61,505 nucleotides of DNA from the NCBI GenBank assembly GCA_020718225.1, contig DYSO01000003.1, positions 1 through 61,505 on the forward strand. The letters are read 5' to 3'. Made by a program: the position numbers and the translations under genes. Each line of letters begins with the position of its first letter. Within the stretch, counting starts at the first letter, position 1. This document shows positions 10,738 through 20,027 of this stretch, piece by piece. The DNA comes from Draconibacterium orientale. GTDB lineage: Bacteria; Bacteroidota; Bacteroidia; Bacteroidales; FEN-979. The notes under the pieces were generated by a model, which worked only from the letters and a program-made list of their open reading frames with translations, did no database searches and was not told the DNA's origin.

Positions 10738-12885
10738 ATGAAAGAGATAAAAAAAGACATATTGGTCCGAGTCTATATTGTTTATTTCGGTATTCTGCTT
10801 TTTGGCCTGATTATCATTGCACGTGTTGTCATGATCCAGCAGCTGGACAAAAAAAAATATTCATCCATGGCTTTAAAGCAGGAGATCCATCTTGAAGAAG
10901 TTGAAGCTATCCGTGGCAATATTTGTGCCGACGATGGAACCCTGCTGGCAGTAAGCGTTCCCATTTTTGAAGTCCGGATGGATGTCATTACCGATTCTAT
11001 TTCCGATGTTGTTTTCAGAAACAATGTCGATTCCCTGTCGATCTGCCTTTCGAACCTCTTTCATGATCGTAAGCCGTCGGAATACAAAGATATGTTGTGG
11101 GAAGCCCGGCGTAACAACTCCCGGTTTCTTTTAATTCAACGCGATGTCACCTATCCGGATTTGAACAAAATGCGGAAATTTCCCATTTTCCGACGGGGTA
11201 AATACAAAGGGGGGTTAATTGTAATCCCCCGTTACGAGCGGGAATTACCTTATAAATCACTGGCCAGAAGGATCATTGGTTATGAAAGCGGCGAGGGAAA
11301 GAACAAAGTATATGTCGGGCTTGAAGGATCATTCAGTGAAAATCTTCAGGGTACCAACGGGCAACGCCTAATGCGACGTGTAGGCGGTCAGGCCTGGATG
11401 CCGGTAGATACCGAAAGCGAGATCGAACCCCGGAATGGCGATGATCTCATTACAACCATCGACGTAAACATTCAGGATCTGGCAGAAACAGCCCTCCGGA
11501 AGGAGTTGATTGCCGACAGCGCCGATCATGGTTGTGTCATCCTGATGGAGGTCAAAACCGGTTATATCCGGGCAATGGCAAACCTGGGACTAACAAAGAA
11601 CGGCACCTATGAAGAAATTCTGAATTATGCTATTGGAGAGAGTCAGGAAACCGGATCTACCTTCAAGCTGGCATCGTTTCTTGTCGCGTTGAACGATGGT
11701 AAAATCACTCCCGAAACCCCGGTCAATTGTAATGGAGGGATAACGACCTATTCCGGAAGAAAAATGGAGGATTCACATCACGGTCTTTATGTAGTCCCTG
11801 CCCGTGAAGTATTTGAAAAATCGTCGAATGTGGGAACCTCTCGGATGATATATACGGCTTACTCGGCAAATCCCCAGAAGTTTATCGACGGACTTTACCG
11901 GATCGGGATCAACCGTCCGTTAAACCTGCAGATTGCCGGCGAAGGCCGTCCTTATATCAAGACAACAAAAAGTAAATTCTGGTCGGCATTATCACTTCCA
12001 TGGATGTCGATCGGATATGAGATTTACCTGGCTCCCATTCACCTGTTGACCCTATACAATGCCGTTGCCAACAATGGGACCATGGTAAAACCTCTTTTTG
12101 TCAGGGAGATACGCAGAAACGGGAAACCACTTCAACGATTTGATCCAATAATCATCAATCCGCAGATCGTTTCACCCGCAGCCATCAGAAGCGCACAAAA
12201 CCTTCTTTTAGGGGTAGTGGAAGAGGGCACTGGTCAGGGGATCAGGACACCCCACTACAAAATTGCAGGAAAAACAGGAACCGTGCAGATTGCAGCCAAC
12301 AATAAAGGCTACCGTCAGGGAACCCGACAGGTACAGTACAAAGGTTCTTTTGTGGGGTATTTCCCGGCCAATAATCCGAAATATTCCTGTATCGTTGTGA
12401 TTGTCAATCCAAAAAAAGGAAAATATTATGGGGGTTCTGTAGCAGCGCCTGTTTTCAGGGAATTATCTGATAAACTGTATGCAATTCGTCCCGACATCAT
12501 CATTCCACTGCCTGAAGATACCAGTTCGAATTTCTTACCCAATGGCCATCCGGGTTTCGTGTCCGACCTGTCCGAAGCAGTTATATCACTCGGTATTAAA
12601 TCAATACGAACCAACAGTATCGCTCCCTGGGGGAATCCGGAAACTACATCGGATCAAATTATTATTACACCACAAGGATTTAGCAAAGGGATTATGCCCG
12701 ATGTAAAAGGCATGGTTCTAAAAGATGCTTTATTTCTGCTGGAACAACAGGGATTGCATGTCCTGGTCAACGGAAAAGGCAACGTGGTCAATCAATCCCT
12801 TTTGCCCGGGGCCATGATCACAAAAGGGATGCCGGTTGTGATTGAACTTCGTTTAAAACAGGACAAACCCAAACCTGAAGCCTGA
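10738..12885 (+). CDS. ftsI: Class B penicillin-binding protein FtsI/PBP3 with C-terminal PASTA domain
   Basis: N-terminal TM; RGNI..DG; SxxK (GSTFK), SxN (SSN), KTG (KTGT); MPDVKGM PASTA. Confidence 0.95.
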   Translation: MKEIKKDILVRVYIVYFGILLFGLIIIARVVMIQQLDKKKYSSMALKQEIHLEEVEAIRGNICADDGTLLAVSVPIFEVRMDVITDSISDVVFRNNVDSLSICLSNLFHDRKPSEYKDMLWEARRNNSRFLLIQRDVTYPDLNKMRKFPIFRRGKYKGGLIVIPRYERELPYKSLARRIIGYESGEGKNKVYVGLEGSFSENLQGTNGQRLMRRVGGQAWMPVDTESEIEPRNGDDLITTIDVNIQDLAETALRKELIADSADHGCVILMEVKTGYIRAMANLGLTKNGTYEEILNYAIGESQETGSTFKLASFLVALNDGKITPETPVNCNGGITTYSGRKMEDSHHGLYVVPAREVFEKSSNVGTSRMIYTAYSANPQKFIDGLYRIGINRPLNLQIAGEGRPYIKTTKSKFWSALSLPWMSIGYEIYLAPIHLLTLYNAVANNGTMVKPLFVREIRRNGKPLQRFDPIIINPQIVSPAAIRSAQNLLLGVVEEGTGQGIRTPHYKIAGKTGTVQIAANNKGYRQGTRQVQYKGSFVGYFPANNPKYSCIVVIVNPKKGKYYGGSVAAPVFRELSDKLYAIRPDIIIPLPEDTSSNFLPNGHPGFVSDLSEAVISLGIKSIRTNSIAPWGNPETTSDQIIITPQGFSKGIMPDVKGMVLKDALFLLEQQGLHVLVNGKGNVVNQSLLPGAMITKGMPVVIELRLKQDKPKPEA

Positions 12886-14354
12886 TGGAATTAAAGGAAA
12901 TCATCGGTGATATCATCATTCGCGAAAGCACGGGAGATACCCATATTCTGGTAACCGGTCTAAGTTTTGATTCACGGAGCATGGTTGCGGGCAACCTTTT
13001 TATTGCCATCCGGGGAACGGCTTCCGACGGACATGATTTTATTGAGGCGGCCCTTTTCCGCGGCGCAGTTGGTGTGGTTTGCGAGGTTGTTCCCGTCAAC
13101 AAAAAAGAGGGCATCTGCTATATTGTTGTGGAAAACAGCAGCATTGCACTGGGTAAAATGGCATCCACATTTTACGGAAACCCTTCTGGAAAGTTGCATT
13201 TGATTGGTGTTACCGGAACCAATGGTAAAACGACAACAGTCACTTTATTGCACCGGCTATTTCTCAGTCTTGGATACGGTTGTGGCCTGATTTCAACCAT
13301 TGTAAACAAGATAAACACCACTGAATTTCCAGCAACACATACAACCCCTGATCCCATCCGGCTAAACGAATTGATGGCCCGGATGGTGGATGCCGGATGT
13401 GAATATTGCTTTATGGAGGTTTCATCGCATGCTGTGGACCAGCATAGAATTTCAGGGTTAACCTTTTCAGGGGGTATTTTTACCAATCTCACGCACGATC
13501 ATCTCGATTATCATAAAACCTTTGAAGCTTATCTTAAAGCAAAAAAGCGTTTTTTCGACCTGCTTCCTTGCGGTTCCTTCGCATTGATTAACAAGGACGA
13601 CAAAACCGGCCCTGTTATGTTGCAGAATACAGAGGCAACGAAATACACTTACAGCCTTCGCGGAATGGCTGATTTTCGGTGCAATATTATTGAAAATCAG
13701 TTTGATGGTCTTCTACTTAACATAGATGGAACAGAGGTTTGGTTCAAACTGATCGGGACTTTTAATGCCTACAATTTACTCTCGGTATATGCAGCGGCGA
13801 TTTTGCTGGGCCAGGAAAAAACCGGTGTCCTCACCACTTTAAGCCGGTTGGATCCGGTCGACGGAAGATTTAATTATGTCAGATCCCCTGAAAATGTCAC
13901 TGCAATTGTGGATTATGCCCACACCCCCGATGCTTTGCAAAACGTGCTGGAAACAATAAACAGCATCCGGGGGCATCATGAACAGTTGATTACCGTGGTT
14001 GGCGCCGGAGGTAACCGGGATATTTCGAAACGCCCCATCATGGCTGCCATTGCATGTAAATTCAGCGACCGGGTGATTTTCACCTCCGACAACCCCCGTT
14101 TTGAAGACCCGGAGGCTATCCTGGCAGACATGAAACGGGGAGTTGAACTTCACCAGGTTGGGAAAATACTGACCATTGTGAACCGGGAGGAGGCAATTAA
14201 AACGGCATGTGCCCTGGCCCGACCGGGAGATATTCTGCTGGTTGCAGGGAAAGGACATGAAAACTACCAGGAGGTACAGGGTGTTAAGCGCCATTTTAAC
14301 GATAAAGAAATACTACAGGCTATTTTCGGAAATACAAACCTGATCAATCCGTAA
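12885..14354 (+). CDS. murE: UDP-MurNAc-L-Ala-D-Glu--meso-DAP ligase
   Basis: [44 protein letters not shown] (DAP-type), AGKGHENYQ. Confidence 0.97.
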
Positions 14355-14358
14355 GAGG

Positions 14359-15621
14359 ATGTTATACTATTTTTTTTCATGGTTGGACACAACCTTCAAC
14401 TTCCCCGGGGCAGGGGTTTTTCAATATATCTCTTTCAGGGCGGCGGCGGCGCTTATAACCTCGCTGTTCATCACCATGATCATCGGGAAAAGACTGATCC
14501 ATTTCCTGCATAAAAAACAGGTGGGTGAAACCGTACGTGATCTTGGGCTTGCAGGGCAAAATCAAAAACAAGGTACCCCAACCATGGGAGGGTTGATTAT
14601 TCTTTCGGCCATTTTGGTCCCGTCACTTTTGTTTGCAAAACTGCACAATATATATATCATCCTCGTAATGATAGCGACCTTATGGCTGGGATTGATCGGA
14701 TTTCTGGATGATTATATTAAAGTATTTAAAAAAGATAAAAAGGGGCTGTCTGGTAAGTTGAAAATCCTCGGACAGATCGGACTAGGACTGATTGTAGGAT
14801 TTACGATGTATTTCAGCGATCGTATTGTGATCCGGGAACGGATCCAACAATCAGCCTATGTTCCTACAACGGATGTTTTCAATGTTGAAGGAGGTGTTGC
14901 CACACACGATAAGGCACGGATATTTTCGAAGGATGCAGTGAAGTCAACAAAAACAACCATTCCTTTTATAAAGAACAACGAATTTGATTACAGTCATTTT
15001 GTTTCATGGTTGGGAAAAGGCGCCAAACAGTGGACCTGGCTGATTTTTATACCCATTGTGATCTTCATCATCATTGCCGTATCCAATGGAGCCAATCTCA
15101 CCGATGGCCTGGACGGGCTTGCAACCGGAACTTCGGCCATCATTGGGTTAACCCTTGGGGTATTTGCCTATGTTTCGGGGAACATTGTATTTGCCAATTA
15201 CTTAAATATCATGTATATACCAAATACCGGAGAGCTAACAATTTATATTTCAGCATTTGTGGGCGCGTGTATAGGTTTCTTATGGTACAATTCTTATCCG
15301 GCTCAGGTCTTTATGGGAGATACCGGAAGTCTTGCTTTGGGGGGGATCATTGCCGTGTTTGCCATAATGATCCGGAAAGAGATACTGATCCCTATTTTTT
15401 GCGGGGTTTTTTTAGCAGAAAACCTTTCGGTAGTGATGCAGGTTGGATGGTTCAAGTACACCCGGAGGAAATTCGGGACAGGGCGGAGAATATTCAAAAT
15501 GGCGCCCCTTCATCATCATTTCCAGATGTTGGGATACCATGAATCGAAAATTGTCCTGCGCTTTTTTATTGTCAGCATCATGCTGGCTGTTTTATCCATT
15601 GTAACACTCAAACTCAGATAA
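14359..15621 (+). CDS. mraY: Phospho-MurNAc-pentapeptide transferase
   Basis: [40 protein letters not shown]. Confidence 0.97.
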
Positions 15622-15626
15622 CAACC

Positions 15627-16175
15627 ATGACATTAGAAGCCTTAGCAAAACAAGGGCACACCACGGTGTACGACTCATTGGCTGCCTCCATTGGGCCAAA
15701 AATCAGGGACATCAGAAAAGAGTTCATCAAAGAGAGTTTCTCGGGGTTTCAACAACCGGAACATCGGCTCGAAACAGTTGCCAATATTCACGGAATGGAG
15801 TTTATCAACGATTCGCGTTCATCCAATATCAATGCTACCTGGTATGCCATTGAGAGTATTTCCAGGCCGATTATATGGATTGTTGGCGGTGTTGAAAACG
15901 GCAATGATTATTCGGTTGTATATCCCTTGGTGAAACGTTTTGTACAGGGCATAATATGCCTGGGACTCGATAACCGTCGTATCCACGAGGCATTTGATGA
16001 TCTGTGTAAACCCATGGCTGACGTTATCACTATGGGGGCGGCGGTGCAGGCTGCCTATTCCATGGGAATCCGGAACGAGGTAATCTTACTTTCACCGGCA
16101 TGTGCCAGCTTCGATCTGTTTGAAAACTTCGAAGAACGGGGAAAAGCATTCCGGGAAGCGGTAAAAAAATTATAA
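15627..16175 (+). CDS. murD: MurD C-terminal-domain-only protein (182 aa), lacking the N-terminal and ATP-binding domains; putatively non-catalytic
   Basis: EHRLE, FINDS, WIVGG, ICLG.DN, LLSPACASFDLF..FEERG..F match the MurD C-terminus; no P-loop; occupies the murD slot with only 5 bp after the mraY stop. Confidence 0.8.
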   Translation: MTLEALAKQGHTTVYDSLAASIGPKIRDIRKEFIKESFSGFQQPEHRLETVANIHGMEFINDSRSSNINATWYAIESISRPIIWIVGGVENGNDYSVVYPLVKRFVQGIICLGLDNRRIHEAFDDLCKPMADVITMGAAVQAAYSMGIRNEVILLSPACASFDLFENFEERGKAFREAVKKL

Positions 16176-16186
16176 ACTGACAGACC

Positions 16187-17398
16187 ATGCCACACTTTCT
16201 AAGGGAGATAAAGGGAGATAAAGTAATCTGGATCGTTGTTGTGATTCTGTGCATTTTTTCTATACTGGCCGTTTACAGTAGTACCGGAACCCTTGCATAT
16301 AAAAAACAACATGGCAATACTGAATACTATCTTGTCAAACATTTTCTCATCCTGTGTTTTGGCCTCATTCTTATGTACATAACCCATTTGATAAAATATA
16401 CCTATTATTCGCGTATTTCGCAGATCGGATTATTTCTGACATTGCCATTGCTTCTGGTTACGCTGGTTTCGGGTACCAATTTGAACGAAGCGCCCCGTTG
16501 GCTGACGGTCCCGTTGGTTAACCTGACGTTTCAAAGTTCCGATATTGCCAAACTTTTTCTCTTCATGTACCTGGCCAGGATCCTGAGTAAAAAACAAGAG
16601 ATGGTACAGGATTTCCGTAAAGGGTTTCTTCCGGTGATAATCCCGGTAATCCTGGTCACCCTTCTTATTTTACCCGCGAATTTCTCAACTGCAGCCATAT
16701 TGTTTGTGACGAGCCTGATCATCATGTTTATCGGGAGGATCAGTATGAAGTATATGGTGTCGCTGATCGCACTGGGTTTTATCGGTATTATTATCATCTT
16801 TTCATTATCCAAATCTTTTCCTAAACTATTACCCCGCACCCCTACCTGGATTGCCCGGATTGACAATTTTATCAACAAGGACAAAGCCGATACAGACGCC
16901 ACATATCAAATTGATCAGGCGAAGATTGCCATTGTTTCGGGAGGGATTCTCGGAAAATCGCCGGGGAAGAGCACCCAGCGGAATTTTTTGCCCCATCCCT
17001 ACTCCGATTTCATTTTTGCCATTATCATTGAAGAATATGGACTGGCCGGAGGCGGTTTTTTATTGTTTCTTTATCTTATTCTCTTTTTCAGGGTTATCCG
17101 TGTTGCCAGTCGAAGTGAAGGGAATTTTGGTTCATTACTGGTTGTGGGTATCGGGTTTAGTTTGGTTTTCCAGGCGCTAATTAATATGGCCGTAGCGGTA
17201 GACCTGTTTCCGGTAACCGGTCAAACATTGCCATTAGTAAGCATGGGGGGCACCTCAATCTGGTTCACCAGCATATCGTTGGGTATAATCCTTAGTGTAA
17301 GCCGGAGGACAGAGATGGAGACCAAAGATGGGACGGAGGTTGAAGTTCTTCAGGAACCGGGGTTGGGTATTAATCCTCAAACAGCCATGGTACCATGA
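16187..17398 (+). CDS. ftsW: SEDS peptidoglycan polymerase FtsW
   Basis: RW......TFQSSDIAK, YQIDQAKIAI..GG..GK.PG.S.QRNFLPHPYSDFIFAII.EEYG, GQTLPLVSMGGTS. Confidence 0.95.
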   Translation: MPHFLREIKGDKVIWIVVVILCIFSILAVYSSTGTLAYKKQHGNTEYYLVKHFLILCFGLILMYITHLIKYTYYSRISQIGLFLTLPLLLVTLVSGTNLNEAPRWLTVPLVNLTFQSSDIAKLFLFMYLARILSKKQEMVQDFRKGFLPVIIPVILVTLLILPANFSTAAILFVTSLIIMFIGRISMKYMVSLIALGFIGIIIIFSLSKSFPKLLPRTPTWIARIDNFINKDKADTDATYQIDQAKIAIVSGGILGKSPGKSTQRNFLPHPYSDFIFAIIIEEYGLAGGGFLLFLYLILFFRVIRVASRSEGNFGSLLVVGIGFSLVFQALINMAVAVDLFPVTGQTLPLVSMGGTSIWFTSISLGIILSVSRRTEMETKDGTEVEVLQEPGLGINPQTAMVP

Positions 17399-18627
17399 CA
17401 AAGATAATAATCAGCGGCGGGGGAACCGGTGGACATGTTTATCCGGCCATTGCCATTGCCAATGCCCTGAAAGCAAAGGAAGAGGACATGGATATTTTGT
17501 TTATCGGGGCGCAGGGCCGGATGGAAATGGAAAAAGTACCGGCAGCAGGTTATCGAATTGAAGGTCTGAAAATAAGCGGATTTCAAAGAAAGTTTACCTG
17601 GAAAAATCTGACTTTCCCATTCAAACTGGCAGTAAGTTTGATGAAAGCAAGGAAAATAATTACCCATTTCAAACCCGATGCCGTTATCGGGGTTGGAGGT
17701 TATGCCAGCGGCCCGACCTTGCGGTTGGCGGCATCAAGAGGAATCCCATGCCTGATCCAGGAACAGAATTCATTTCCCGGGATGACAAATCGCTTATTGG
17801 CTGAAAAAGTCCGTACAATCTGCGTGGCTTATCCAGGGATGGAGAAATTTTTTCCGGTTGAAAAAATCAGACTGACCGGGAACCCCATTCGCCAGGACCT
17901 GGTAAACCTTACAGGTAAAGAAAAAGAAGCACGGGCCTATTTCGGGTTTAAGGATGATGAAAAGGTCGTTTTGGTGTTGGGTGGCAGTCTTGGCGCCGCA
18001 AACATAAACAAAGCCATGTTAAAATTTATTGGGGAAAACGTCACCTCTGAAATCCCCTTCCAGATCATCTGGCAAACCGGAAATTATTATTATGAAGCCG
18101 TATATAAAAATCTACAGAATGAAGGATGCAGGGTTCCAGGCTCTTCCCTCCTTCCGAATGAAGGTCCCGGTGGCTATGATTTCCGGCATCCGGCATCCGG
18201 TATCGGGAAAGTAGTTGTTGTCCCATTCATCAACCGGATGGACCTGGCTTATTCCATTGCCGATCTGATCGTTTCAAGGGCAGGGGCCATTGCCATTTCA
18301 GAGCTGAGTGTTATTGCACGGCCCATCATTCTCGTTCCATCGCCCAATGTGGCCGAAGACCATCAGACAAAAAATGCCGAGGCGTTTGTCAGACAAAAGG
18401 CAGCCCTGATGGTGCGTGATCAGGATGCATCAGAGATGCTGGGGAATACCATCGTCAAACTGATCAATGACTGCTCTCTTCAGCAAGAACTGACAAACCA
18501 TTTAAGACCCCTGGGGATAATGGATGGCGCGGAAAAAATAGCAGAAGAGACTCTCAAACTGCTTCCCGGAGCTATGAAAAAAGAAAACCGGCATTTGACA
18601 TTAACTCCATTGAAACAGACCAGATGA
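17395..18627 (+). CDS. murG: Undecaprenyl-PP-MurNAc-pentapeptide GlcNAc transferase MurG, with an apparent internal insertion
   Basis: SGGGTGGHVYP, GGYAS, EQNSFPG..N, GNPIR, GGSLGA, SRAGA, DHQTKNA. Confidence 0.97.
   Translation: MTKIIISGGGTGGHVYPAIAIANALKAKEEDMDILFIGAQGRMEMEKVPAAGYRIEGLKISGFQRKFTWKNLTFPFKLAVSLMKARKIITHFKPDAVIGVGGYASGPTLRLAASRGIPCLIQEQNSFPGMTNRLLAEKVRTICVAYPGMEKFFPVEKIRLTGNPIRQDLVNLTGKEKEARAYFGFKDDEKVVLVLGGSLGAANINKAMLKFIGENVTSEIPFQIIWQTGNYYYEAVYKNLQNEGCRVPGSSLLPNEGPGGYDFRHPASGIGKVVVVPFINRMDLAYSIADLIVSRAGAIAISELSVIARPIILVPSPNVAEDHQTKNAEAFVRQKAALMVRDQDASEMLGNTIVKLINDCSLQQELTNHLRPLGIMDGAEKIAEETLKLLPGAMKKENRHLTLTPLKQTR
18181..18208. repeat. Degenerate heptamer run TTCCGGC ATCCGGC ATCCGGT ATCGGGA inside murG
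   Basis: Direct reading; a GAATGAAGG direct repeat also occurs at 18117 and 18156. Confidence 0.6.
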
Positions 18628-20027
18628 TGAAACCCGAAAAACTTAATTCGGTTTATTTTATTGGCATTGGAGGGATAGGCATGAGTGCGTTGGCACGTTA
18701 TTTTTCCAGGCTGGGAATTTCGGTCTCGGGTTATGACCGCACCCCAACACCTTTAACCAGTGAACTTATCCATGAGGGCATTCCGGTTCATTTTGAAGAA
18801 AACCTCGGTCTCATTCCGGAAAATCCTGACCTTGTAATTTATACACCTGCTGTTCCAAGCGATCATATCGAATTTCTCCATTACAAAAGGTTGGGTTTTC
18901 CCCTGAAAAAAAGGGCAGAGGTTCTGGGCTTGATTACGGCGCCCCTGAAAACCATTGCAGTAGCCGGTACTCATGGAAAAACAACCACTTCTGCCCTGAT
19001 AGCCCACATCCTATACAGCGCCGGTATTGATTTTCTGGCGTTTCTGGGAGGTATCGCAAAAAATTACGGAAACAATTTTATCGACTTCCCTTCCATCAAT
19101 AATCCGGCTTCTGCCCACACAAACCACAAACAGAACCGGTTTTGCGTGGTTGAGGCCGATGAATATGACCGTTCATTCCTTCAACTAACACCGCATATTG
19201 CCATTATCACCTCCGCCGATCCCGATCATCTGGATATTTATGGCCATGCGGACGATCTGAAAAGAACTTTCGAAGAATTTACCTCGCGTATTGACGAAGG
19301 AGGTAAACTGATACTCAAACAAGGGGTTTTGATAAAACCTTTTCATAAACAACGTTATACAGAATATTCCTATTCGGTTGCCGATCAAGCATCATTCTAT
19401 GCGACAAATATCCGGTTAGACGAAGATCTGTATCATTTCGATCTGATCACTCCGGAAAAGAGGTATGAACATTTCACCCTGGGCATTCCCGGTTTGTTTA
19501 ATCTTGAAAATGCAGTGGCAGCATTGTCGGTAGGCCATATCCTGGGCTTGGATGAGGCAACCATGAAAAGAGCGCTCCGAAGTTATCAGGGAGTTCAGCG
19601 ACGGTTTGATTTCCGGATCCGGCGCAATGATTTTATTTACATCGATGATTATGCGCACCATCCCGAAGAGCTTCGTGCATGTATCGGTTCCGTCAGGACC
19701 ATCTACCCCGGAAAAAAGATAACCGGAATTTTTCAGCCCCATCTTTTTACCAGGACCCGTGACATGGCTGCCGACTTTGCCCGTAGCCTCGAATTATTGG
19801 ATGCGCTCTACCTGCTTGATATTTATCCTGCACGCGAAAAGCCCATTGAGGGTGTTGATTCGTCCATGTTGTTGGATTTAATCAGGTTAGAGCATAAAAC
19901 CCAAACAACGAAGACGGAGGTGCTCCCCCTTTTATTAAAAAACAAGCCGGAAATCCTGATGACATTAGGCGCAGGTGATATTGATCAACTCGTAAAACCC
20001 ATAACGGAAGCTTTTGGTAAAGCGTAG
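18624..20027 (+). CDS. murC: UDP-MurNAc--L-alanine ligase
   Basis: FIGIGGIGMSALA, AGTHGKTTT, VEADEYD, RRF, DDYAHHP, FQPHLFTRT. Confidence 0.97.
   Translation: MMKPEKLNSVYFIGIGGIGMSALARYFSRLGISVSGYDRTPTPLTSELIHEGIPVHFEENLGLIPENPDLVIYTPAVPSDHIEFLHYKRLGFPLKKRAEVLGLITAPLKTIAVAGTHGKTTTSALIAHILYSAGIDFLAFLGGIAKNYGNNFIDFPSINNPASAHTNHKQNRFCVVEADEYDRSFLQLTPHIAIITSADPDHLDIYGHADDLKRTFEEFTSRIDEGGKLILKQGVLIKPFHKQRYTEYSYSVADQASFYATNIRLDEDLYHFDLITPEKRYEHFTLGIPGLFNLENAVAALSVGHILGLDEATMKRALRSYQGVQRRFDFRIRRNDFIYIDDYAHHPEELRACIGSVRTIYPGKKITGIFQPHLFTRTRDMAADFARSLELLDALYLLDIYPAREKPIEGVDSSMLLDLIRLEHKTQTTKTEVLPLLLKNKPEILMTLGAGDIDQLVKPITEAFGKA

Follow-up and report, generated by a model that had tools for sequence, protein, structure and literature searches.

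The stretch analysed here, which we call the window, is 61,505 nucleotides (nt) of a Draconibacterium orientale genome (assembly GCA_020718225.1, contig DYSO01000003.1, positions 1 to 61,505 of the forward strand). It contains a division and cell wall (dcw) cluster in the order mraZ-rsmH-ftsL-ftsI-murE-mraY, an open reading frame (ORF) of 182 amino acids (aa), and then ftsW-murG-murC-ftsQ-ftsA-ftsZ. The ORF occupies positions 15627..16175 on the + strand and starts with its own ATG. From the ORF list, hidden Markov model (HMM) matches, orthologs and predicted fold, it is a stand-alone gene for the C-terminal domain of the MurD ligase, hereafter murD-C. Immediately upstream lies mraY (14359..15621, + strand; ORF list and TIGR00445, 329 bits, above cut-off), the stop codon of which is separated from the murD-C ATG by the five nucleotides CAACC (15622..15626, + strand). 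This spacer, which measures 4–8 nt across the genus, corresponds to the deletion junction. Immediately downstream, the ftsW gene for a SEDS (shape, elongation, division and sporulation) glycosyltransferase (16187..17398, + strand; TIGR02614, 279 bits, best match) begins with an ATG at 16187, 11 nt past the murD-C stop codon. These positions confirm those given in a first-pass annotation of the window. Within murD-C, an N-terminal extension (residues 1–45; 15627..15761, + strand), delimited by alignment, AlphaFold2 and substitution rates, precedes domain 3 proper (residues 46–182; 15762..16172, + strand), to which AlphaFold2, Foldseek and a residue table assign a Rossmann-like α/β fold.

The Pfam model Mur_ligase_C (PF02875) matches residues 46–159 of the murD-C product with 31.1 bits (gathering threshold 28.4), and the full model is covered. 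The TIGR01087 model for MurD gives 154.4 bits, which fails the curated cut-off of 211.95, and the match is confined to positions 261/271–441 of the 441 in the model, in keeping with the first-pass reading that only the last ~40% of MurD is represented. Domain 1 (UDP-binding) and nearly all of the ATP-binding domain 2 are missing, and with them the P-loop residue K115, H183 and the carbamylated K198 (E. coli numbering). The product does not have the three-domain architecture of MurD, for which the 5-nt spacer to mraY leaves no space, and no frameshifted remnant of the MurD N-terminus lies upstream; the first-pass annotation had likewise seen neither room for the Rossmann and P-loop domains nor a remnant. 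What the gene does share with MurD is the fold of domain 3 and its place in the dcw cluster, flanked by mraY and ftsW. AlphaFold2 modelled residues 46–182 with a predicted local distance difference test score (pLDDT) of 83–96, and the first 33 Foldseek matches are all MurD, with a query template modelling score (TMq) of 0.70. Residues 1–45 correspond to the final strand and two helices of what used to be the central domain and were modelled with low confidence (41–61); the HN..N motif for ATP/Mg in this segment now reads H T-T-V-Y-D. The start methionine coincides with an internal methionine conserved in 80 of 84 canonical Bacteroidales MurDs.

Motifs were compared across the murD-C short forms, E. 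coli MurD, these 84 canonical Bacteroidales MurDs and 14 proteins of the MurD2 type discussed below. The motifs HRLE, FINDS and LLSPACASFDLFENFEERG are retained in murD-C, and three others have changed: H267/N268/N271 to T/T/D, DSKATN to DSRSSN and GG.DK to GGVEN. The first-pass annotation had read all of these correctly. The positions that contact ATP/Mg and D-glutamate (D-Glu), namely H267, N268, N271, K319, T321 and K348, are T, T, D, R, S and N in murD-C; none of them varies among the 84 canonical Bacteroidales MurDs except N271, which is present in 82 of 84. At the K319 position the arginine of the window is a minority variant (K in 25 and R in 6 of 37 orthologs). Equivalents of R302, N316-D317-S318, S415 and F422 are retained together with the GNDY and SPACASFD blocks, and those of A320, T321, N322, D347 and K348 are changed. 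In this region canonical MurD has 54 positions with ≥95% conservation; the short forms of the genus keep 39 and have lost nine, eight of which sit in three active-site motifs (H267/N268/N271, A320/T321/N322 and D347/K348). Two positions that are canonically hydrophobic (L in 78 of 84; L/I/M/V) have become K/N/T/Q and R, respectively, in the short forms, and would once have faced the deleted central domain on a surface that is newly exposed. The residues N69, W72, E76, N93 and F123 (window numbering) are common to the canonical and short dcw forms, are not found in E. coli MurD or MurD2, and are candidates for a partner-binding surface. Judged by its sequence, murD-C cannot act as a ligase, as the first-pass annotation had maintained, since domains 1 and 2 and the contact residues are gone. 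These data strongly support its description as a stand-alone domain 3 of MurD, catalytically dead, with 45 residues left over from the central domain at its N-terminus.

The gene is neither an assembly artefact nor a decaying relic. Positions 15200–16600 are covered without any difference by single contigs of two independent metagenomes (biofilm 2014, aquifer 2022), and the mraY-murD-C junction is also crossed in a lake metagenome by a strain of ~2.3% divergence; neither joints nor indels were seen. In 36 other species of the genus the same junction was recovered by independent assembly. All genomes of the genus in which the region is assembled carry murD-C (36 relatives and the window genome); one copy is cut by a contig end, and every other copy measures 546 nt and uses the same ATG. 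True absence was considered for three same-genus genomes and rejected, because in G002 the gene is cut by a contig end and the assemblies of G006 and G034 are without the whole region. Among 37 distinct orthologs (four from other families) the ATG is at the same aligned position, or one codon upstream in one lineage, and nearly all are 546 nt long. The Nei-Gojobori ratio of nonsynonymous to synonymous divergence (dN/dS) is 0.07–0.085 for murD-C; in these pairs of genomes mraY and ftsW each give 0.04. By part, the murD-C ratio is 0.106 for the N-terminal extension and 0.099 for domain 3, the extension being slightly better conserved. At equal MraY+FtsW distance the short form evolves 2–3 times faster than canonical C-termini, and constraint on murD-C is relaxed yet far from gone. 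Codons 2–12 (15630–15662) have a dS of 0.63, about half the 1.37 of the remainder, which suggests that the region of translation initiation is constrained. In the protein database there are 1087 murD-C homologs of 100–318 aa, the top 120 of which are almost all exactly 182 aa, under the names 'hypothetical protein', 'cyanophycin synthetase' or 'MurD'; in read archives the sequence occurs in DNA runs only.

A misassembly is ruled out by the contigs from independent runs that cross the junction and by the 36 other species that share the structure, and a pseudogene by a dN/dS of ~0.08 and genus-wide length conservation. The genome itself holds no second canonical murD. The view that murD-C is a young pseudogene or an artefact, with a real full-length murD hidden by a misjoin, is thus almost certainly wrong. 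The first-pass annotation had allowed for both a faulty junction and a pseudogene unique to this genome; the junction proved sound and the truncation genus-wide. Homology to an enzyme, loss of catalytic residues and domains, and purifying selection are the sequence hallmarks of a pseudoenzyme, and murD-C has all three.

In the MurD2/MurL pathway, described for Xanthomonas oryzae (XOO_1320/XOO_1319; Feng et al. 2017; reviewed in PMC8788868), MurD2 ligates L-Glu and MurL then epimerises the product using ATP (PMC8788868). L-Glu specificity is set by E197 and R358 of X. oryzae MurD2, equivalent to E. coli D182 and K348, and the substitution K319T lets E. coli MurD accept L-Glu (PMC8788868). As to the DISPLACEMENT of the ligase, the sole full-length MurD-family gene in the source assembly (275 contigs, 94.6% complete) lies on contig C82 and matches with 308 bits over HMM positions 2–440, covering all three domains. 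It overlaps the 3' end of a PP-loop gene that matches the MurL model NF041275 (E = 7.5e-72, 242 bits, model positions 9–401), below the Xanthomonadales-specific cut-off of 700. Together with a third gene these form an operon of overlapping or abutting genes outside the window (C82:12188-15961, - strand), comprising murL (468 aa), murD2 (492 aa) and a glucosaminidase/LysM gene (325 aa); a peptidoglycan hydrolase is in this way co-encoded with the alternative D-Glu route. The MurD2 specificity positions carry D182E and K348R, plus K319I, and the catalytic set is intact (K115, N138, E157, H183, K198, H267, N268, N271, R302 and D317). The same specificity residues and an intact catalytic set were found in 13 of 14 Bacteroidales MurD2 homologs.

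No match to glutamate racemase (TIGR00067) was found in this 94.6% complete genome, and the best match to D-amino-acid aminotransferase (TIGR01121) scores 36 bits against a cut-off of 277. The MurE of the window (murE, 12885..14354, + strand; NF001126, 603 bits, above cut-off), which adds meso-diaminopimelate (meso-DAP), is of the type that uses the D-Glu dipeptide. Given the E/R/I specificity residues, the intact catalysis, the lack of racemase and aminotransferase, and the D-Glu-type MurE, we infer that the D-Glu dipeptide of this organism is supplied by MurD2 and MurL. The C82 operon resembles the Xanthomonas system in its E/R pair, adjacent MurL and missing racemase, whereas murD-C lies outside the pathway, as the leftover of a displaced enzyme. 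The first-pass annotation had offered three ways out of the missing ligase. A full-length gene elsewhere beside a retained pseudo-enzyme is what we find, since a full-length MurD-family gene lies on C82 and the dcw ORF is under purifying selection; an alternative D-Glu route is also borne out, since the C82 gene is a MurD2 of the L-Glu type coupled to MurL; a split MurD is excluded, because MurD2 holds all three domains.

We surveyed 61 relatives and 151 genomes drawn evenly from the order (146 genera). Presence of MurL and of MurI is complementary across the 61 relatives, where no MurI-positive genome has the short form. In the order-wide set MurL occurs in 57 of 151 genomes, covering 54 of 146 genera, and every genome with the short form also has MurL wherever the assembly permits the test. 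Outside the genus, the MurL-positive lineages divide into 28 with a full canonical dcw MurD beside MurD2, 26 with the short ORF only, one apparent loss (G120) and three that are not assessable. In the 26 lineages the short ORF encodes 176–192 aa, is C-terminal only and lies between mraY and ftsW. Nine genomes at first appeared to have MurD2 only, without a remnant, and six of these hold a diverged short ORF that the HMM threshold had missed. The 28 lineages with both enzymes (G045, G047, G049, G059, G060 and 23 further genomes) have a canonical dcw MurD of 382–419 bits; in the five named, the invariant MurD catalytic residues were checked and MurI is absent. G047 and G189 belong to the same genus (g12), the former with a full canonical murD and the latter with the short form only, which reflects either a very recent truncation or contamination or binning in one assembly. 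Open frames of 949 and 885 aa (G130:C329 and G123:C23) hold both MurL and MurD2 matches and are apparent fusions. One genome, G050 (2.1 Mb, 10 contigs, 98% complete), has no MurD, MurD2, MurL or MurI match at the thresholds used; its best TIGR01087 match (E = 7.8e-28) is at the level of MurC/MurE-type cross-matches in other genomes, and it possibly represents a wall-less or very divergent lineage.

The short form did not arise once. On an MraY+FtsW tree of 88 loci the short/full state requires 11 changes, at least six of which are forced by well-supported branches, and because regain of 265 codons is implausible these count as independent truncations, so that at least six separate origins are strongly supported. 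The short protein of G039 shares 72–73% identity with the C-termini of the canonical MurDs in its sister taxa and 57% with other short forms, and a C-terminal tree groups it with those canonical sisters. The spacer from mraY to the ATG also varies by lineage, from the 4–8 nt of the genus to 23, 87, 19, 20, 29, 108, 95 nt and others elsewhere. In certain lineages, alignment to the HMM continues upstream of the intact C-terminal ORF through 1–5 stop codons, representing a decayed central domain. A single origin is ruled out by the two trees and the differing junctions. Most truncations begin at the same conserved internal methionine; the idea that all of them do is only partly true, because G068, G091, G111 and G078 have other N-termini. 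We also considered murD-C as a duplicate of the MurD2 C-terminus and rejected this, since it is 32% identical to MurD2 versus 50–59% to canonical dcw MurDs, with which the tree places it.

The short form persists even where its sequence has changed a great deal. In seven reduced-genome lineages the protein is 26–38% identical to that of the window and the blocks GG.DKGNDY and SPACASFD.F.NFE.RG are largely eroded, while the ORF, its size and its position remain. One highly diverged short protein is still predicted to have the domain-3 fold, from an input alignment that contained canonical sequences. Strictly invariant across 16 lineages are D317, the W-I of strand β2 and one phenylalanine of the last helix.

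NCBIfam models support the identities of the neighbours as MraY, FtsW-type SEDS, MurE (meso-DAP type), MurG and MurC. Over 12885–15621, mraY lies directly 3' of murE; the cluster is without murF and ddl, and a probable murF is on contig C62. Downstream of ftsW are murG (17395..18627, + strand; TIGR01133, 275 bits, above cut-off) and murC (18624..20027, + strand; TIGR01082, 360 bits, above cut-off). The best MurG-model stretch covers residues 1–244 of 410 aa (model positions 5–236 of 353), consistent with an insertion after approximately residue 244.

The sequence data strongly support a takeover of glutamate addition to the stem peptide by an unlinked murL-murD2 operon, with MurL converting L-Glu to D-Glu on the nucleotide precursor. 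The dcw MurD then became redundant as a ligase, and its first ~265 codons were deleted repeatedly and independently in different Bacteroidales lineages, each truncation leaving the last ~180 codons as an ORF in the mraY-ftsW slot. Constraint vanished at the ATP/Mg and D-Glu contacts and stayed on the fold, the N-terminal extension and the dcw-type residues. Because strong selection has preserved a dead domain in no fewer than six lineages truncated independently of one another, the MurD tail probably has a second, hitherto undescribed job. Domain 3 would perform this non-catalytic function in full-length MurD as well, and would have to do so without the ATP or D-Glu contacts. We think it reasonably probable that the domain was kept for such a second function and that this is likely protein binding within the precursor and divisome machinery. 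A scaffold role SPECIFICALLY can be envisaged, in which murD-C would be an adaptor between the soluble steps of the Mur ligases and the machinery at the membrane (MurE/MurF, MraY/MurG or FtsW), with the conserved, low-confidence N-terminal extension as the candidate partner-binding segment.

Protein binding is favoured on several grounds. Substrate-pocket residues erode while the fold persists, murD-C stays in the mraY-ftsW slot wherever it is kept, and a conserved N-terminal segment of low model confidence would be typical of one that folds on a partner. It is also favoured because MurD binds MurE-MurF with a dissociation constant (KD) of ~0.8 µM, independently of cofactors, and because natural MurD-FtsW fusions exist (Shirakawa et al. 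2023, PMC10214165). These systems resemble our proposal in that the C-terminal end of MurD can be tied to FtsW and the contact is non-catalytic; they differ in being full-length active enzymes whose MurD contact surface has no domain mapping (PMC10214165). In the surveyed lineages the short form was never seen fused to ftsW.

Several observations weigh against this interpretation. The species proxy behind the count of truncations is a two-gene tree (MraY+FtsW) with some long branches. About half of the MurL-positive lineages retain a full, catalytically intact MurD, so displacement of the ligase is not automatic, and the MurL-positive G120, with a rearranged dcw cluster, is apparently without murD-C, which is therefore not indispensable everywhere. 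Spacing from murD-C to ftsW runs from -5 to ~300 nt, which argues against obligate translational coupling or an ftsW fusion. Equivalents of R302, D317, S415 and F422 are retained in most lineages, a pattern that residual ligand binding would also fit, and the scaffold role is itself purely inferred. G120 (L166, L172) is the one lineage in which the remnant has apparently been lost. Its dcw cluster breaks off after mraY, which is followed by a lipoprotein gene judged ApbE-like by eye; ftsW is on another contig with no MurD-C ORF upstream.

Residual binding leads to the suggestion, which we consider unlikely, that free domain 3 is a ligand sensor or regulator that still has a small-molecule ligand (an adenine nucleotide, D-Glu or UDP-N-acetylmuramoyl-dipeptide) and uses it to regulate MraY, FtsW, MurD2 or MurL. 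The equivalents of R302 and D317, the adenine and ribose contacts of E. coli MurD, are retained in all or nearly all lineages, and within the genus S415, F422 and the SPACASFD block do not vary; however, K348, T321 and the HN..N motif are lost, and the ORF of the seven reduced-genome lineages outlives the very blocks such a sensor would use. Mur ligases bind ATP and the amino acid at inter-domain clefts, which would be gone in murD-C. It is less probable still that the free domain acts in trans, as a subunit that complements or activates MurD2, MurL or another Mur ligase. Its strict co-occurrence with MurD2/MurL wherever the assembly allows a test would agree with this, as would the MurL-MurD2 fusion frames, which imply that the proteins of the pathway work in physical proximity. 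Yet MurD2 is complete with three domains and its own C-domain, 28 MurL-positive lineages do without a free one, murD-C is always in the dcw slot and never beside murL-murD2, and the published reconstitutions of MurD2 and MurL required no third protein (PMC8788868).

The constraint might instead act in cis, with the last third of murD carrying signals for ftsW expression (a promoter, mRNA stability or ribosome delivery) and the protein as a by-product. The ORF is always immediately upstream of ftsW and synonymous divergence is lowered in codons 2–12, but the constraint is at the amino-acid level (dN/dS of ~0.08–0.10 over the full length, with dS near saturation), length and fold are preserved down to 26–38% identity, and the ftsW spacer ranges from overlap to the hundreds of nucleotides given above. 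We regard this explanation as very improbable. Returning to a second function of domain 3, the first-pass annotation had argued for neofunctionalisation over decay. Retained function stands, at a dN/dS of ~0.08; neofunctionalisation does not follow, and retention of an older domain-3 function would fit at least as well, because most of the conserved positions are common to canonical MurD.

An older function raises the tentative and rather doubtful idea that domain 3 of dcw MurD has a conserved second role in the precursor and divisome machinery of Bacteroidota and perhaps was already made separately by internal initiation. Across 57 canonical murD genes, A+T makes up 76% of the 21 nt that precede the conserved internal ATG, compared with 58% gene-wide, and this stretch is in the top A+T decile of windows in 28 of the 57 genes, where ~6 are expected; the signal is confounded by local amino-acid composition and shared ancestry. 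Bacteroidota initiate translation on A-rich, unstructured leaders. Given this preference and the A/T-rich stretch, internal initiation from full-length murD, yielding a free domain 3, is conceivable. The repeated truncations would then merely uncover a product that had always been made.

Compared with canonical dcw MurD, murD-C is a direct descendant, 50–59% identical to Bacteroidales MurD C-termini and with the same slot and domain-3 fold, but without domain 1 and nearly all of domain 2, with H267, N268, N271 and K348 lost and T321 altered. The isolated C-terminal domain of Mpl (PDB 3MVN; Foldseek rank 38, TM score 0.70 on the target) is likewise a Mur-ligase domain 3 that is stable alone, although it was produced in the laboratory by trimming a full-length enzyme and is no natural gene. 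The closest functional analogy known to us, and one that makes a binding role more plausible, is PAP11 of the plastid-encoded RNA polymerase (PDB 8R6S chain Q; fold-search rank 50), a MurE-like protein kept as a structural subunit and not as a ligase; unlike murD-C, it has the full three domains, comes from plant plastids, belongs to an unrelated complex and lies outside any cell-wall gene cluster. Our literature search turned up no report of a free-standing MurD C-domain in nature, nor of MurD2/MurL in Bacteroidota. One match to 'truncated MurD' was set aside as an artificial two-hybrid construct (residues 55–354). The published distribution of MurL, which the order-wide survey far exceeds, comprises Xanthomonadales, a few Alphaproteobacteria and rare actinomycetes, and the review of the pathway lists no Bacteroidota and mentions no MurD remnant (PMC8788868). 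Within this context murD-C appears to be a pseudoenzyme remnant of a displaced enzyme with an unusually strong signal of convergent retention.

These findings affect annotation first. More than 1000 murD-C homologs in the database carry the labels 'hypothetical protein', 'cyanophycin synthetase' or 'MurD', and metabolic reconstructions may credit MurD activity from the short gene or score the D-Glu route as missing. The MurD2/MurL route, which published work restricts to a few genera, occurs in roughly one third of the families sampled from a whole order of Bacteroidota, a result of relevance to proposals for narrow-spectrum inhibitors. MurD, which is essential and has been studied intensively as an antibiotic target, has been regarded purely as an enzyme. 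At least six times, in what amount to natural 'experiments', its chemistry appears to have become redundant, two-thirds of the protein were discarded and the last domain was kept. This convergent retention points to an unrecognised role of domain 3 and offers a clean genetic handle for finding it.

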